From the NCBI GenBank assembly GCA_007376145.1, contig VMFP01000004.1:6988-70987 (forward strand): a DNA stretch of 64,000 nt. Reading direction: 5' to 3'. Source of the DNA: Parcubacteria group bacterium Gr01-1014_38 (GTDB taxonomy: Bacteria > Patescibacteriota > Andersenbacteria > UBA10190 > CAIZMI01). The notes under the pieces were generated by a model. The model saw only the letters and a program-made list of their open reading frames with translations, had not been told where the DNA came from and did no database searches. How positions within the stretch are numbered: the stretch's first letter is position 1; each line of letters starts with the position of its first letter. The translations under genes were made by a program, and so were the position numbers. Positions 39,704 through 46,780 of the stretch are shown piece after piece.

Positions 39704-40866
39704 CGGGTCTGCTCTGTGAGCATCGCGTGAACCATTCCTTGAAACAAGAGTGCACGGCCTTTCCAGTGAAACTCCGTATCCGCGCGAGCACGCGCGGCTG
39801 CTCCGAGCCGGGCACGCCGTGCATCGTCGGTGAGAAGTTCTCGGAGAGCTCCCGCCGTCGCGTGCGCGTCCCCGGGAGCCACGAGGATTCCAGTCTTGCC
39901 ATCGAGTACCGCTTCTGGAATGCCACCGGTCCGACTGGCCACGGCCGGCTTTCCCATGGCTGCAGCCTCAATGTACACAATACCGAAACCCTCTCGGTCG
40001 TCCGGCAGGTCGAGTGGCGTGAGTGCGAACAAGTCGGCGACGGCGAGCGCGCGGCGCACGTTGTCATCTGATGCATTCCCTAACAGGGTGACTGCATCGC
40101 GCACACCGCGCTCGTTGATACGGTGTTCAAGCGCTTCTCGTTCCGGGCCCTCACCGACGAGGAAAAGGTGCACATTCGGAACGGCACGCCGGACCTCTGC
40201 GAGCGCATCCACGATAACGTGCACGCCTTTCCGCGGCACGAGACGCGTGACCGTCGCAATGACGCGCTTTCCGTCCAGCTGGTATCGAGCGCGGAAGGCT
40301 TCGAGCTCCGGCGGGACAGCAAAGTATTCTTCCCGCACCCCGGGGTAGAGTTTGACGAGACGCTCCTCGGCGACCCCAAGAGACTTTAGCAGAGCTTTCG
40401 TTTGGTCATTGATCACGACCACGCGTCCCGCCTTCCGCAGGACACTCTGGAGCTGCTGGCATGCGTGCGGGCTGCGGACCCACGTTTGAATCTCCATTGC
40501 GTACGTGCAAACCACAAACGGAATGCCGAACTCGACTTGAAGCTTTAGCGCTGCCCGTCCTTCAAAGAGCGCTTTCCCGCAGACGACCGCTTCGATACGC
40601 TCACGACGGGCCAACTCACGCACGGCCTGCCACGCTGGTCGCCACCGTGGGTACGCCCAGGCGCGCATCGGCGCGCGGACAATCCGATAGCGTCGGTGTG
40701 CATCCCACGCGCGGTCGCCGGGCTGTGGTGCAGCCACAACAGACGACTGCTGGGGAGGCAGTGCGCCCCAAATCCCAGAGAGATATGCCTGGATGCCGCC
40801 GACCGACGGCGAAAAGGTCTCGGTCAACAGCAGTAACCGGTGCGCAAACAAAGGTGAGGGGAACAA
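39700..40866 (-). CDS. glycosyltransferase family 4
   Basis: …REGFGIVYIEAAAMGKPAVASRTGGIPEAV… GT4 motif. Confidence 0.85.
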   Translation of the reverse strand: MFPSPLFAHRLLLLTETFSPSVGGIQAYLSGIWGALPPQQSSVVAAPQPGDRAWDAHRRYRIVRAPMRAWAYPRWRPAWQAVRELARRERIEAVVCGKALFEGRAALKLQVEFGIPFVVCTYAMEIQTWVRSPHACQQLQSVLRKAGRVVVINDQTKALLKSLGVAEERLVKLYPGVREEYFAVPPELEAFRARYQLDGKRVIATVTRLVPRKGVHVIVDALAEVRRAVPNVHLFLVGEGPEREALEHRINERGVRDAVTLLGNASDDNVRRALAVADLFALTPLDLPDDREGFGIVYIEAAAMGKPAVASRTGGIPEAVLDGKTGILVAPGDAHATAGALRELLTDDARRARLGAAARARADTEFHWKGRALLFQGMVHAMLTEQTR

Positions 40867-40932
40867 CGGGCCAGAAATTCCTGCGCAGCATACCGCGATT
40901 CCCGCCCGTTGGGAAGCCTCGCGAGGATGGAA

Positions 40933-42369
40933 CTAGTACGCTTTCTCGAGCTTCGCACCGGTGAAATAGTACGTAAGAATTTTTCGGTAATCCCAGTTGT
41001 CCTTGCGGGCGAAACCGACGGCGCCACGGCCACTTAAGCCGGTCCCGTGACCGACAAGCCGACTCCCGCCATGCGGATCATCCTTTTCTTGCAAGTACGG
41101 AAATCGCTTCGACCGCCAGACCTGTTCTCCGCTTCGCGTCCTTCCATCACTCTGCGAGAAGTAGAGCGACGCGATCGGTTTTCCGTCGTAGGTGAGAATG
41201 GCCCCTTTCGTTGAAATCGTCTGTTCCCGAAAGTCGGGAACACGTGCCTCGTAGTCCAACCCCGCGTACAGCTGATCGTTCGCGGTGTTTGTAATAACAA
41301 AGCCGTTGTGCGGCTGGCGGCCACCAGCATTGAGGTGGTAGAGCACGTACGTGCGCGCAAGGATTGCCAGCGCTTTGTGGAATTCCGGCGGGGCGGCATC
41401 GGTCGTTTCCGCAAGACCCCGGACATACTCTTCTGCTCGCACCTCATTGATCGCCCAGAGACCATCTCTCCGATCACTCACGCGCACTTCCAGGGTTCCC
41501 CGATAGCGATTGTACGGCCCGGACCCCGGAACGCCGCTTGGTTTTGACGTTTGCGATGCGAGCACCAGCGGTTCACCATCCATGCCGCCGAACTTCGGCG
41601 GACTCTCCAACTCGGTCGTGAAGCCGCCCGGGCCTTTCACGATATACGCATTCCCGCCCCACGAAACCGTGACGGTCTGCTCCGGGCCGTTGAAGATTTT
41701 CTTCTTCCCTTCCGGCAAGCGGATAAAAAACTTTCCTGCCCCGCTAACGCGCACGCCCTTGCCTTTCGCTTCCAGAAGACCGATACGAACAAGGGGCCCC
41801 GACTGGTGCCCCCCAAATCCGAGACCCTCATTGAATGCGATGCGTGTCGTGGTAGCGCTCTCACCGCGCGAGGCGCGCGCACAGAATTCTTCTTTCGTTC
41901 CCGACCCAACGGAAACTCCGCTGCTCTTGTGGAAACTCAGCGCACCGACCAGCGCTTTCTCTGTCGTGAGATCCTTACAGACGACGCGGTCCGTCCAGTA
42001 GCGTTTCTCTTTGTCGTTCGGCGCTCGGCTAAACACGCCCTGAAAGAGCTGCGGAACGCGACTCGCGAGTTGGTCGGAGGTCCCCTTTCCTGACCCGCTC
42101 GTCGCTTTTCCAGCGCTCTTTGCAAACCCCATGGCGCCGCGAAGTTCGGACTCAACCGGCTTGTCCTTCCGCCGACCTTCCCAGTATGCAAGCTCATCTT
42201 TGGTTGGCGCTCGACCAAAGACCTCGCGGAAGAGTTTTGCTACATCGGTGGCGGGTGCGGCAAATGCGAGAGACGCGGACAGCGCAAATCCCGCGACCGC
42301 CACCGCACCAACACCGAGAATGCCGAGTCTCCTCCGCACGTTCAGTCGCAGTATACGCCAGTCGAGCAT
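40933..42369 (-). CDS. SpoIID/LytB-domain protein with N-terminal signal/TM
   Basis: C-terminal SpoIID/LytB region (…NRYRGTLEVRV…EVRAEEYVRGLAETTDA…FSQSDGRTRSGEQVW…). Start at ATG 42369; the track shows a TTG at 42378. Confidence 0.8.
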   Translation of the reverse strand: MLDWRILRLNVRRRLGILGVGAVAVAGFALSASLAFAAPATDVAKLFREVFGRAPTKDELAYWEGRRKDKPVESELRGAMGFAKSAGKATSGSGKGTSDQLASRVPQLFQGVFSRAPNDKEKRYWTDRVVCKDLTTEKALVGALSFHKSSGVSVGSGTKEEFCARASRGESATTTRIAFNEGLGFGGHQSGPLVRIGLLEAKGKGVRVSGAGKFFIRLPEGKKKIFNGPEQTVTVSWGGNAYIVKGPGGFTTELESPPKFGGMDGEPLVLASQTSKPSGVPGSGPYNRYRGTLEVRVSDRRDGLWAINEVRAEEYVRGLAETTDAAPPEFHKALAILARTYVLYHLNAGGRQPHNGFVITNTANDQLYAGLDYEARVPDFREQTISTKGAILTYDGKPIASLYFSQSDGRTRSGEQVWRSKRFPYLQEKDDPHGGSRLVGHGTGLSGRGAVGFARKDNWDYRKILTYYFTGAKLEKAY

Positions 42370-42461
42370 CGTGGTCAAGAAAGAAAAAAAACGCGGGGGG
42401 GTACACCACGCAATAGACAGAGAGCCCCGCAGCTGCTATCGTACGCGCGCTGCGCAGATGA

Positions 42462-42595
42462 ATCCCGTTACATGTTTACCCGCCTCCCTGTCAGGCAGGA
42501 AACGTCCAGCCGGACGTTTCCTGCCCCTGCGCACAGAAAAGGCTTCGGACACCTGAGAGTCCCCTTTACTACCAACGTAAACATGTAACGGGATG
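42462..42595 (+). promoter_or_regulatory. structured 5' leader: 18-bp perfect inverted repeat enclosing a 14-bp GC hairpin, with the right arm overlapping the GT2 start codon
   Basis: ATCCCGTTACATGTTTAC (42462-42479) pairs perfectly with GTAAACATGTAACGGGAT (42577-42594), and the ATG is at 42593. Inner hairpin 42494-42525 (GGCAGGAAACGTCC-AGCC-GGACGTTTCCTGCC). Confidence 0.5.
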
Positions 42596-43579
42596 AAGCT
42601 CGTCATTCTCATCCCCGCGTTGAACGAGGCCGCGACGATCGCGCACGTCATTCAGGAGATTCCGAAGAGCTTCCTCGACATCGCGGGTCACGAAGTCGTG
42701 GTGATTGATGATGGGTCAACAGACACGACGGTGACAGAAGCGCGCGCGGCCGGCGCCACCGTCATCTCCCACGGAGCGAATCGCGGCGTCGGCGTGGCCT
42801 TCCGCACCGGGCTCACGGAAGCGCTCAAGCGCGGTGCGGACGTCATGGTCCATGTCGATGCGGATGGGCAATTCAACCCCGCAGATATTCCCGCGCTGCT
42901 CCAACCGCTCGTTGAGCACCGCGCAGACATCACGACGTGCACGCGGTTCAAGCGCCCGGAACTGCAGCCGACCATGCCGCCGATCAAGGTGTGGGGCAAC
43001 CGCATGGTCACGCGCATCGTGAATGCTGCAACCGGACAGCGCTTCACCGACGTGTCGTGCGGCTATCGCGCACTGACCCGCGAGGCTGCACTTCGCCTCA
43101 CGCTGTTTGGCCGCTTCACCTACACGCAGGAGATGTTTCTTGACGCGGCGCAGAAAGACTTGCGCATAGTCGAAGTGCCACTCCGCGTCCGCGGAGAGCG
43201 GGAAGTGGGAAGATCCCGCGTCTACACCAATGCGTGGAACTACGCCGTGCGCAGTGCCGCCATCCTCTTTCGCGCGGTGCGTGATACCAGTCCACTGCAG
43301 GTGTTTGGATTCGTTGCAGTGATCCTTGGCGGCCTCGGGATCCTCTCCGGCGGATTCGTCTTCACCCATTGGCTCCGGACAGGGCAGACCTTCCCCTACC
43401 GCTCGATGGTGACGCTGGCATCCGTCCTCGTCCTCTTGAGCGCCTTCTTCGCGACGATCGCGCTCCTCGCCGACATGCTCCGCCGGCAGCGGAAAATCCT
43501 TGAGGAGATGCTCTACTACGCCCGCCGCGAGTTCTTCGATCGGCACCGGACTCCGCCGCCCCCGCCCGCATCCTCCTGA
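42593..43579 (+). CDS. GT2 polyprenyl-phosphate hexosyltransferase (DPM1/GtrB-like) with C-terminal TM helices
   Basis: MKLVILIPALNEAATI…VVVIDDGSTDTT… and two C-terminal TM segments. Confidence 0.85.
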   Translation: MKLVILIPALNEAATIAHVIQEIPKSFLDIAGHEVVVIDDGSTDTTVTEARAAGATVISHGANRGVGVAFRTGLTEALKRGADVMVHVDADGQFNPADIPALLQPLVEHRADITTCTRFKRPELQPTMPPIKVWGNRMVTRIVNAATGQRFTDVSCGYRALTREAALRLTLFGRFTYTQEMFLDAAQKDLRIVEVPLRVRGEREVGRSRVYTNAWNYAVRSAAILFRAVRDTSPLQVFGFVAVILGGLGILSGGFVFTHWLRTGQTFPYRSMVTLASVLVLLSAFFATIALLADMLRRQRKILEEMLYYARREFFDRHRTPPPPPASS

Positions 43580-43606
43580 CGCCTCGTTGGACCAAGTCTT
43601 GGTGCT

Positions 43607-44680
43607 GTGGCAACCCCTTCAATCCTTTTTGTCACCCGAGCTTTCCCTCCCGTGGTCGGGGGCATGGAGAACCTAAGTGCAGAGTTCGTTGCCGCAGTCA
43701 GTCGAAAAACGCGAACCCGGCTCATCGCCAATCGGCACGGGAAGAAAGCGCTGCCGTGGTTTCTGCCGTGGGCAGCGTTCCAGATGACTCGCATGGCGCC
43801 GCAGGCAGACGTGATTCACCTCGGCGATCCGCTCCTCACCCTTCTCCTCCTCGCACGCCTTGGTCTCCAGAAACCGGTCACGGTGACCGTGCACGGACTG
43901 GACGTGCTCTACCCCTCCCCGCTCTACCAAGCGCTGCTCCGCCGCTCCTTCCCGCGCGTGAGCCTCGCGTTCTGCATTAGCCACTTCGTCGAACAGCGCG
44001 TGCGGGAGCGGTTCCCAGCAGTGAAAACCACCGTTCTCTCCCCCGGGCAGAGAGGCTCGTGTGCGGTTCCCGGCGCGACGAGAGCTGGCCTCGCCCGCGC
44101 CCTTGAGCGCTCCATCCCCACCGGTCCGCTCCTCCTCGCCATTGCTCGCCTCGTGCGACGGAAGGGACTCGCCTGGTTTGTCGAACGGGTTCTCCCGCAG
44201 GTCCCGAGCGCGATGCTCCTCATTATCGGGGATGGTCCGGAAAGACAGAGAATCGCCGAGTCGGCGCGACGGGCAGGCGTGCCCGAACGGGTTCTCCTGG
44301 CGGGTACCGTCCCGCGCGAGACGCTGAACATGGCGTACACGGTTTCTGATCTCCTCGTGATGCCGAATATTCCCGTCCCTGGTGACGCGGAAGGATTTGG
44401 CCTCGTGGCGCTCGAGGCCGCATCGGCGGGGCTTCCCGTAATCGCAGCCGACCTTGAAGGTATTCCCGACGCAGTTATTCCGAATGAGACGGGTATCCTC
44501 GTCCCGCCGCAGGACGCGACCGCCTGGGTTGCAGCGCTCACGCGCCTCCTCCGGGACTCGATGACCCGCCAGCAGTTGGCGAACCGCGCCCCGAAAGCCA
44601 TCCGCGAACGCTTCTCGTGGGAACAGCGCGGAGATGTCATCCTGGAAACGTTTACGCGTCTCTCCCGCCATAGACCTTGA
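43607..44680 (+). CDS. glycosyltransferase family 4
   Basis: …AEGFGLVALEAASAGLPVIAADLEGIPDAV…. Confidence 0.85.
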   Translation: MATPSILFVTRAFPPVVGGMENLSAEFVAAVSRKTRTRLIANRHGKKALPWFLPWAAFQMTRMAPQADVIHLGDPLLTLLLLARLGLQKPVTVTVHGLDVLYPSPLYQALLRRSFPRVSLAFCISHFVEQRVRERFPAVKTTVLSPGQRGSCAVPGATRAGLARALERSIPTGPLLLAIARLVRRKGLAWFVERVLPQVPSAMLLIIGDGPERQRIAESARRAGVPERVLLAGTVPRETLNMAYTVSDLLVMPNIPVPGDAEGFGLVALEAASAGLPVIAADLEGIPDAVIPNETGILVPPQDATAWVAALTRLLRDSMTRQQLANRAPKAIRERFSWEQRGDVILETFTRLSRHRP

Positions 44681-44905: not shown

Positions 44906-46780
44906 TTATTCAGCGGGCGGAAGGACTCGAATGCTCACCGGCCCGGACATGAAGAGAGAAGTACCGGCCCGGGGGCAGCGGGAAGTCTCCGGCCCGCAGA
45001 AGAGGTACGCCGCTCTCGGAGGAACACTCTCTCCGCTGTGAAAAAGATTCTGGACAGCCGCGAGCACCGTATCGTCCGGTGAGAGCCAGTACTCGCTCCG
45101 AACTTGGGCCCGGCCAGTAAACGCCGGGAGGGAAAGCGGCGCAACGTCTCGGTTCTTGAACACGCTCTCTGGCGCTCGGAGAAAGATACTCTCGGAAGGA
45201 GTGTGAGCTCGAATCCAGGCGAAGGCGGCGAGTTCATCCGCGGACACGACATGCGGTGGCTTCCACACAAGGATGTCGAGCGTCCCAAGCACCGACGCGG
45301 CGACAGGAAGAAGGAGAGCAAGCACCGTGAACGCTCCACCGCCCCACAGGACTACATGCTCCGCAACAGTGTGCTCCACGTGGCGCACCTGCCGCCACCA
45401 CCAATCGGCAACCCGCTGCACGACAGGAATCACGGCTGGCCACCCGAGGAGCGCAAGGAGAAACAGGAACCTCGGCGAATTCTCCGCAATGATGTCGCGT
45501 CCCGAAAAGACCAAGGTGGCGATGCCAAGCACTGGCAGGAGAACTGCGGCTGTGAGAAGACTCGGCGCGCGGTGCAGCCAGGCCGTATCCCAGAGCGCCC
45601 AGAGCACCACGAGCGCGGGAAGTGCGGCCGTGAGGAACTGCGGGACGGCCGTGTAGGCGACGTTCACGGTTCCAAGCGCGCCGGCGCCGGGCGGAAACAG
45701 GAAAAAGAGCGCCGCGAGAATTGCCGACCCAACGAGTCCCGAAAGACGATCCCGCAGCGACCAGCCCCGATTAAAGAATTGAAGGAGGTTTGACCCGATG
45801 GCGAGCGCAATCGCCGCGGTCCCGAGCACCGCGTTGCTAAAGAGGAGCACAATTGCCAGTGTCCCGACCCCGAAACGGAGTACGCGGCGTTCAACCGTCC
45901 GCTCGCTCTGATCGCGGAGAACAAGGAGAAGAATACAAAGGAAGAAGAGCCCGGTAAGAAAGGTGTGCGACTGCGGGTAGATGAAGCCCTCCCAGGTGGA
46001 GCCAAACGCCGCAAGCAAGAGCAGCGCCGACCAGAACGGAATCTTCTCCCGCCGCAGGAAGAACTGCGTTGAGAGCACGCTCACGGCAACCGTGCCGGCG
46101 ATCACGGGAATGATGAGCCACCAGGCGACGCGCGTGATATCACCACCCGTGGTGTCGAGGAGATCGGCGAGCGCACGATGGAGCAGTGTTGGGTACTCCA
46201 GCGGCCCGTTGCCCGCAAACGGATTCTCACGGAGGAGCATCGCTCCCTCCCGTGCGCCCGAAGCGTTCGTGAGCGCAAAGAGCGTCATGGTATCGCCGTT
46301 CACAAACCCGCGCGCGTGGAATGCTTCGCGACCGTCCGGCAGTCGAACGTAGCCGTTCCTCGCGTTGACCACGGCGATGCTGACCAGCACGGGGACGAAC
46401 GCCGCGACGAAGAGGAGTTCTCCGCGCGTGATGCCGCAAAGAACGCGCGACAGCTTCGTCCGCCAGAGCACGAGTGCCGACATACCGCCAAGGAGGATGC
46501 TCAGCGCAAGAAGGCAGAGGGAAAACGGCAAGCCTCCAAACACCGGCACTGCCGCGCGGAGGAGCGCCCCAAAGAGGAGCACCCCGACGCCGAAGACCAC
46601 GCTCGTTCCCATCCAGAGGAGCACGCTCATTTCGGGGATGAGGAGAAGCGCGAGAGCGGCCCCCACGCCCAGGAGAGCGGCGGTGACGGCCACGACGGGG
46701 TATCCCGTGCCGAACGCGAAACCCGCGATCGGAAGCCCGACCCCGACCACGAGCGCGAGCACCCAGGGAGAGAACCGCAT
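44906..46780 (-). CDS. polytopic membrane protein (putative GT-C-type glycosyltransferase/polymerase)
   Basis: 624 aa with more than 12 hydrophobic helices; sits within the glycan locus. Confidence 0.55.
   Translation of the reverse strand: MRFSPWVLALVVGVGLPIAGFAFGTGYPVVAVTAALLGVGAALALLLIPEMSVLLWMGTSVVFGVGVLLFGALLRAAVPVFGGLPFSLCLLALSILLGGMSALVLWRTKLSRVLCGITRGELLFVAAFVPVLVSIAVVNARNGYVRLPDGREAFHARGFVNGDTMTLFALTNASGAREGAMLLRENPFAGNGPLEYPTLLHRALADLLDTTGGDITRVAWWLIIPVIAGTVAVSVLSTQFFLRREKIPFWSALLLLAAFGSTWEGFIYPQSHTFLTGLFFLCILLLVLRDQSERTVERRVLRFGVGTLAIVLLFSNAVLGTAAIALAIGSNLLQFFNRGWSLRDRLSGLVGSAILAALFFLFPPGAGALGTVNVAYTAVPQFLTAALPALVVLWALWDTAWLHRAPSLLTAAVLLPVLGIATLVFSGRDIIAENSPRFLFLLALLGWPAVIPVVQRVADWWWRQVRHVEHTVAEHVVLWGGGAFTVLALLLPVAASVLGTLDILVWKPPHVVSADELAAFAWIRAHTPSESIFLRAPESVFKNRDVAPLSLPAFTGRAQVRSEYWLSPDDTVLAAVQNLFHSGESVPPRAAYLFCGPETSRCPRAGTSLFMSGPVSIRVLPPAE

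Follow-up and report, generated by a model that had tools for sequence, protein, structure and literature searches.

A MITE-like palindromic element apparently inserted on the start codon of a glycosyltransferase gene in a Parcubacteria bacterium

Small palindromic insertions form a known class of bacterial DNA. [quoted passage not shown] The Correia elements (CREE/NEMIS) of Neisseria are non-coding, ~100–155 bp long, bounded by long terminal inverted repeats and co-transcribed; RNase III cleaves or binds the duplex of the transcribed repeats, neighbour-gene expression changes, and presence varies by strain (PMC2649163, PMC10969869). ERIC/IRU, RUP, MITEAba12 and Nezha are small palindromic intergenic insertions transcribed as stable stem-loops that may affect mRNA stability, and some MITEs are present in no more than 1 copy in a genome (MITEAba12 in 1–22) (PMC10969869, PMC3184786, PMC2229807). 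Rickettsia palindromic elements (RPE), ~100–150 bp long, insert in the coding part of genes without destroying them (PMC10969869). Here we describe a 133-bp palindrome that lies across the start codon of a glycosyltransferase gene (GT2) in a 64,000-nt stretch (hereafter the window) of contig VMFP01000004.1 from the uncultured groundwater organism Parcubacteria group bacterium Gr01-1014_38. Comparison with related loci indicates that it is best described as a MITE-like element, single-locus so far, of this known class of small palindromic insertions.

The element is framed by an inverted repeat that a repeat finder recovered from the window sequence as complementary at 18 of 18 positions, with arms 97 nt apart (Table 1), as an earlier note on this DNA had described it. 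The perfect 14-bp hairpin with a 4-nt loop that the note placed inside the repeat was also borne out, at 14 of 14 pairs. The note had the right arm end at the A of the GT2 start codon (42593); the arm does end within the ATG, but at T 42594, so that it spans the ‘AT’ of the start codon together with 16 nt upstream. Even with up to three mismatches allowed, the arm sequence occurs at two sites only in the window (0.01 expected). It forms the sole long perfect inverted repeat there with arms ≤400 nt apart, and by our own reckoning an inverted repeat of any perfect 18-mer, with arms within 400 nt, is expected in 64 kb at ~4e-4. The same sequence was found in an ENA assembly (L008) and in a Logan assembly of a separate run (L009), which rules out an assembly artefact. 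Inverted repeat and nested hairpin are confirmed as genuine, non-chance features. Flanking them is a direct repeat, (G)ATGAA, with a spacing of 135.

We compared the orthologous locus in eleven distinct relatives among related Candidate Phyla Radiation (CPR)/Parcubacteria, most of which retain the gene order SpoIID(−)/GT2(+)/GT4(+). The tally was two filled and nine empty orthologous loci. The element occupies the same nucleotide in the window and in L011 (83% protein identity), reading ATGA[ATCCCG...CGGGAT]GAAGCT. At the empty sites (L010, L016, L012/13/14, L015, L017, L018, L061, L062 and L081) the upstream region runs straight into ATGAA(A/G)CTC, with a single ATGAA, in the pattern TATCGT-N11-19-ATGAAA/G. 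The element is missing even from the closest relative, L010 (85% protein identity), where the sequence reads ...TGCTATCGTacgcgcgctgcacgcacacATGAAACTCGTC, and likewise from L016, L012, L015 and L081. The empty sites thereby mark the repeat as the boundary of a discrete insertion of 133 bp (132 bp in L011). Judged by these alignments, the element is a lineage-specific insertion and no conserved leader element or riboswitch. The earlier note had held that a lack of conserved pairing in orthologous leaders would refute its proposal of a cis-regulatory RNA; with nine of eleven loci lacking the element, a conserved regulatory RNA fails for most of them.

Table 1. Coordinates of the palindromic element and of the features around it (window positions unless a locus is named).
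Feature	Position	Strand	Sequence or remark
Left terminal inverted repeat, 5′ arm of the long helix	42462-42479	+	ATCCCGTTACATGTTTAC
Right terminal inverted repeat, 3′ arm of the long helix	42577-42594	+	GTAAACATGTAACGGGAT; ends on A and T, the first letters of the GT2 ATG
Nested GC-rich hairpin, 14/14 pairs, 4-nt loop AGCC	42494-42507 / 42512-42525	+	GGCAGGAAACGTCC-AGCC-GGACGTTTCCTGCC
Whole inserted palindromic element, 133 bp	42462-42594	+	Absent from nine orthologous loci, filled in L011
L011 counterpart of the element, 132 bp	L011 2871-3002		At the same nucleotide as the window insertion
Left direct repeat (G)ATGAA, putative target-site duplication	42457-42462	+	Holds the ancestral ATG, 42458-42460
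Right direct repeat (G)ATGAA	42592-42597	+	Carries the start codon that GT2 now uses, 42593-42595
GT2 glycosyltransferase gene, 328 aa	42593-43579	+	Polyprenyl-phosphate sugar transferase type
Promoter-like TAGACA-17-TATCGT with TG extension	42414-42442	+	Upstream of the left arm
Upstream open reading frame from the duplicated ancestral ATG, 32 codons	42458-42556	+	MNPVTCLPASLSGRKRPAGRFLPLRTEKASDT; stop TGA 42554-42556

The two carriers allowed us to ask how the element has changed. Its stems are identical at 58 of 62 positions between the window and L011, and the four differences amount to two double-sided compensatory changes with zero broken pairs: U-A to G-C at arm position 12, the other 17 arm pairs being invariant, and U-A to A-U at hairpin position 11 (alignment columns 44/53). 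The terminal repeats are 18/18 paired in L011 too, and the nested hairpin there has 13 bp. We calculate p ~1e-4 for two complementary pairs to arise if four substitutions fell at random on the 62 stem positions. Non-stem positions are 30/71 identical (42%; Fisher p = 1e-10 versus the stems), and 4-fold degenerate sites of GT2 in the same genome pair are 0.51 identical. Together these values suggest that the interior drifted at an approximately neutral rate while both helices held, and that selection acts on the pairing. Identities at the three GT2 codon positions (0.85/0.93/0.56 between the carriers) indicate that the gene is intact and under purifying selection in both, and it must therefore still be expressed.

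As RNA, the region is predicted to fold into a very stable structure. RNA 42455–42610 folds at −70.7 kcal/mol, against −35.9 ± 3.6 kcal/mol for its shuffles (z = −9.8; 0 of 200 as good), and in the predicted fold a 5-bp extension lengthens the 18-bp helix to 23 bp. The L011 leader gave −67.9 kcal/mol (z = −8.0), and the empty-site start region of L010 was less structured than its own shuffles (z = +1.1). The suggestion of a cis-acting RNA hairpin thus survives in part: the hairpin lies in the predicted leader, would bury the GT2 start and keeps its pairing in L011, but it is not a conserved sensor RNA. The element was probably co-opted as a leader hairpin.

Promoter and reading frames set the context in which such a hairpin would act. 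The boxes TAGACA-17-TGnTATCGT are common to six close loci (window, L010, L011, L016, L012 and L015); L018 and L081 have them in a looser form, and L017, L061 and L062 show no clear match. The predicted transcription start lies ~11–13 nt upstream of the left arm, and a promoter scan found no promoter-like sites inside the element. In empty alleles with recognisable boxes, the −10 box ends 11–19 nt before the ATG and no Shine-Dalgarno (SD) motif is present, so the native mRNA should be leaderless or nearly so. The SD motif is missing in the 20 nt before the start for 18 of 22 called genes (L080 and L008, the same genome as the window), and −10-like boxes stand 9–19 nt before the ATG in several SD-less upstream regions of the source genome. 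This suggests that leaderless or short-leader mRNAs are widespread in this CPR bacterium.

The retained ancestral ATG opens an upstream open reading frame (uORF) that spans the 5′ arm and the inner hairpin. Although it shares the frame of GT2, fusion is blocked by its own TGA and by a TAA in the right arm (42578–42580). The window uORF stops 36 nt upstream of the GT2 AUG; its L011 counterpart runs to 45 codons and ends in a TGA that shares bases with the GT2 ATG (ATGA). The GT2 N-terminus, MKLVILIPALNE, is kept from the present ATG in all orthologues. Recoding or read-through of the TGA to give an extended GT2 was rejected because of the second in-frame stop, and also because TGA terminates long open reading frames across the window, in keeping with the standard code. 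Among GT2 homologues with N-terminal extensions, inspected for a translated element, none begins MNPVT; in P0018 and P0019 the extension is an artefact of gene calling over an ordinary leader that lacks the element. The right arm also holds a minimal start-stop frame (ATG TAA, 42583–42588), four bases before the GT2 ATG, which is destroyed in L011 (CTG TAA) and is therefore probably incidental.

Set against the MITE description, the element shows four of six features. At 133 bp it falls within the size range that we used (about 50–500 bp), carries no transposase gene and has as its sole open reading frame the 32-codon frame from the duplicated ATG; it also has terminal inverted repeats, a target-site duplication with a single copy in the empty site, and presence/absence polymorphism. 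The other two features are dispersed copies and a parent insertion sequence. It resembles the Correia elements in inserting in or next to transcription units and in the terminal-repeat duplex of the transcript, which here is predicted, with cleavage proposed by analogy. Correia elements have 26-bp repeats, a TA duplication and an IHF site, can create promoters and reach tens to hundreds of copies per genome, whereas the present element has an unrelated sequence, 18-bp repeats and a (G)ATGAA-like duplication, was seen in one copy, sits on a start codon and belongs to a Parcubacteria metagenome-assembled genome. Arm length and sequence, the non-TA flanking repeat and the non-Neisseria host rule out membership of the Correia family.

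In its presumed mode of action the element comes closest to Correia and ERIC-type MITEs, which are co-transcribed and act by way of their terminal-repeat duplex; it belongs to neither family, as sequence, repeat length, duplication and host all differ. ERIC/IRU and the other MITEs have no sequence similarity to the element, and theirs are many dispersed copies, often with a known parent insertion sequence. The 135 nt between the duplicated ATGs is a multiple of three, as would suit an RPE, but RPEs are translated in frame; here two stops block fusion, the L011 spacing is 134 nt, and the duplicated ATG rescues the gene. Integron attC sites were rejected since the arms do not fit RYYYAAC/GTTRRRY, and REP/BIME since those are short imperfect palindromes and repeated, whereas this palindrome is neither short and imperfect nor seen more than once. 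A full-text search on MITEs in CPR bacteria found essentially no literature, with one unrelated paper.

We searched for further copies in the window, with the arm at ≤3 mismatches plus the hairpin; by blastn-short of both element versions against the window and related-locus sequence; and with R1, a covariance model built from both carriers (31 pairs) and run on 122 kb and then on 22.5 kb more. No second copy was found in the window, in the 9.5 kb past its right end (~73.5 kb of source genome) or in ~58 kb of related loci. Exact-arm scans returned 7 matches among GTDB species representatives, 42 in JGI metagenomes and 17 in IMG/VR, all of them single arms. The GTDB and JGI matches had no complementary partner within 3 kb and so reflect chance or unrelated coding sequence. 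In IMG/VR there was one match per locus, and three Bacteroidales matches share a 19-mer because they are the same gene. A parent insertion sequence was not found in these arm scans, which used exact 16–17-mers only and would miss a diverged parent.

The related loci hold a second, unrelated palindromic element of ~144 nt, at L012 2811–2954 (also in L013 and L014) and L015 2807–2948, that is absent from the window. It sits between the SpoIID start and the GT2 promoter, upstream of the promoter, and its interior is 84.5% identical between L012 and L015, in opposite orientation. The closing arms (12–13 bp) differ wholly in sequence between L012 and L015 and still pair. Its architecture is that of the start-codon element, with GC hairpins enclosed by a long closing stem and a fold of −86.9 kcal/mol (z = −6.4), and neither the L012 nor the L015 copy has an Rfam match. 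Being polymorphic and present in both orientations, it indicates that small palindromic elements are mobile in this clade.

Whether the two filled sites go back to one insertion or two depends on how the carriers are related. Neighbour-joining trees of GT2 do not resolve the window, L011, L010 and L016: the protein tree pairs the two carriers weakly (38% bootstrap), and the nucleotide tree requires one gain and one loss. GT4 identities put L011 outside the group of the window, L010 and L016. The 17-nt promoter spacer is identical at 12 of 17 positions between the carriers, unlike that of L010 or L016. Sliding-window identity revealed no tract at the GT2 5′ end in which L011 resembles the window more than L010 does; recombination as the cause of the patchy distribution was rejected for lack of such a tract, only the spacer hinting at shared ancestry. 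Across window positions 42593–44680, L011 and L016 are equally close to the window over GT2, but over GT4 the protein identity of L016 is much higher than that of L011 (76% versus 67%), which suggests a mosaic history with recombination between lineages inside the cluster. Long palindromes provoke deletion between flanking direct repeats. One ancient insertion followed by a later loss would be compatible with the data and more parsimonious than two hits at the same nucleotide.

These observations can be joined into one account of the locus, in which a MITE-type insertion of ancient single origin, landing on the GT2 start, has its stems under selection and forms a leader helix that gates GT2. 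We lean towards this explanation, with restrained confidence. The comparison of loci shows that the element landed on the first codons of GT2 in an ancestor of this Parcubacteria lineage and that the duplication copied ATGAA, leaving the promoter and the old ATG on the 5′ side and a new ATG at the head of an intact GT2 frame on the 3′ side. Transcription from the promoter through the element would then produce a GT2 leader of ~145 nt whose ends pair over the AUG, around the 14-bp hairpin. Because the genome is SD-poor, start-codon accessibility should decide initiation, and a closed helix should block GT2. Ribosomes starting at the retained 5′-proximal AUG would open the 5′ arm and the inner hairpin as they translate the uORF. 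The GT2 AUG could then be exposed for re-initiation, at the AUGA overlap in L011 and 36 nt past the stop in the window. With the uORF untranslated, the long duplex would close and be a plausible RNase III substrate, as in Correia elements. Selection would keep the stems, and one ancient insertion plus one loss, by deletion between the direct repeats, would give the present distribution.

Start sites locked in a helix and opened by upstream translation occur at the MS2 coat–replicase junction, in E. coli infC-rpmI-rplT and behind erm leader peptides. Those are conserved, evolved arrangements, whereas the coupling proposed here would be the by-product of an insertion. The stronger form of the account, in which a transposon-like palindrome was domesticated as a translational gate on a near-leaderless gene and carries compensatory changes across a divergence that has randomised neutral sites, we put forward only tentatively.

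Several points weigh against this account. Only two carriers are known. The dispersed repetition that characterises MITEs was not shown in the sequence searched. The length of the duplication is ambiguous (2–6 bp: GA, TGAA, ATGAA or GATGAA) because the direct repeat overlaps the ends of the inverted repeat. A shuffle control for covariation is powerless with two sequences, as 113 of 500 shuffles reach the observed value, and one protein binding both arms could also keep them identical. The uORF peptide is unconserved beyond the arm-encoded MNPVT-LPA, and its ends differ between the two carriers. The transcription start, in vivo fold, uORF translation, re-initiation and RNase III cleavage are all inferred.

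A selfish MITE, neutral or mildly harmful to its host, could leave much the same trace if two different members of one family had each inserted, on separate occasions, into a preferred target (ATGAA after a promoter); likeness of the stems would then reflect the needs of the transposition machinery and no use of the RNA hairpin by the host. The terminal inverted repeats, the target duplication and the empty site in L010, the closest relative, would all be expected on such a history, as would carriers that are not sisters in the GT4 and nucleotide trees, an interior as different as unrelated sequence, and the active mobility in the clade to which the other palindromic element, found in both orientations, points. 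Yet two independent hits at the same nucleotide are improbable unless insertion is highly site-specific, and no other copy or variant appeared in any sequence searched. The 42% identity of the interior matches host neutral divergence (51% at 4-fold sites), as vertical descent predicts, and the promoter spacer is specifically similar between the carriers. Recognition by a transposase alone leaves unexplained why the terminal repeat and the inner hairpin each show a complementary double change, and we hold a selfish MITE to be a rather unlikely explanation. It is improbable that the element acts as DNA, with the arms as sites of one protein (a repressor or transposase-derived) that loops 115 bp over the GT2 start. 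The geometry would suit looping, with two identical inverted sites 115 bp apart centre to centre in the window and 114 bp in L011 (~11 helical turns), and the same base is changed in both L011 arms, as co-evolution with one binding protein would give. The sites are absent, however, from nine orthologous loci, most with a similar promoter, and both lie downstream of the −10 box, inside the transcribed region; the earlier note’s operator pair in a divergent promoter is likewise unsupported, the element being downstream of the GT2 −10 box and not between the promoters at 42350–42378 and 42414–42442. The palindrome at the arm core, ACATGT, is lost in L011 (ACAGGT), looping has no need of the nested hairpin’s own compensatory change, and no regulator gene accompanies the element, since the nearby Sigma70_r4 gene occurs in element-free loci.

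Also raised in the earlier note was a dedicated RNA sensor of GT2, whether riboswitch, thermometer or attenuator, and its leader position, the occlusion of the start codon, the very non-random fold and the retention of both helices in L011 would all agree with one. The note recognised no riboswitch class, and Rfam upheld this, with no meaningful match: at a permissive E of up to 10 the window region gave only sub-threshold miRNA/snoRNA noise (E > 1), and L011 gave no match. The interior outside the stems, where an aptamer would be, is the unconserved 42%-identical part, and the element is absent from most orthologous leaders, which speaks against a riboswitch. A thermosensor needs a weak, imperfect helix; 18 perfect pairs (23 with the extension) in a fold of about −70 kcal/mol are far too stable, and such perfect helices would hardly switch with temperature or ligand. 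Attenuation fares no better, because neither hairpin is followed by a U-tract: a scan of 42200–42750 for intrinsic terminators found 0 terminator-like sites, and the letters after the hairpin are CCCTGCGC (+ strand) and TGACAGGG (− strand). A sensor RNA is to our minds the least probable of these explanations, and very improbable.

The element lies in a polysaccharide/envelope cluster. Flippase-like and GT4 genes and then the SpoIID-domain gene occupy the minus strand; GT2 and then a GT4 gene follow on the plus strand. GT2 resembles AglJ/PpgS/ArnC, with scores under the family cut-offs. A gene for a 624-aa protein (44906–46780, minus strand) is syntenic in all close relatives (619–684 aa), and the protein has no Pfam or NCBIfam match. 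The SpoIID gene has its own promoter-like sequence, TTGACC-17-TATACT (42350–42378, minus strand), conserved in orthologues, with a GGAGGAG motif after it (~42322–42328, minus strand). As this promoter lies downstream of the gene’s called ATG (42369; 42367–42369), the true start is probably further in. A small Sigma70_r4 (helix-turn-helix) gene stands between GT4 and SpoIID in L010 (971–1411), L012 (487–891) and L015 (521–877); it is missing from the window, where the GT4–SpoIID gap is only 66 bp (40866–40933). The locus is a cell-envelope glycosylation cluster and is probably relevant to the episymbiotic lifestyle of CPR bacteria.

The finding concerns a single locus and a mechanism that we infer throughout, and it carries a lesson: a hairpin over a start codon, however striking, does not have to be a sensor RNA, and here it appears to be the footprint of a small mobile palindrome. 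If the constraint on the stems is real, the locus would be a compact natural case of a start-codon insertion that was tolerated and then kept by the host. The duplication would regenerate the ATG, and the retained 5′ ATG would supply ribosomes able to open the new helix; if true, this would document the birth of a cis-regulatory RNA from a mobile element. Given such constraint, small palindromic mobile elements would lengthen the short list of known drivers of regulatory change in CPR bacteria, whose genomes are reduced and SD-poor.

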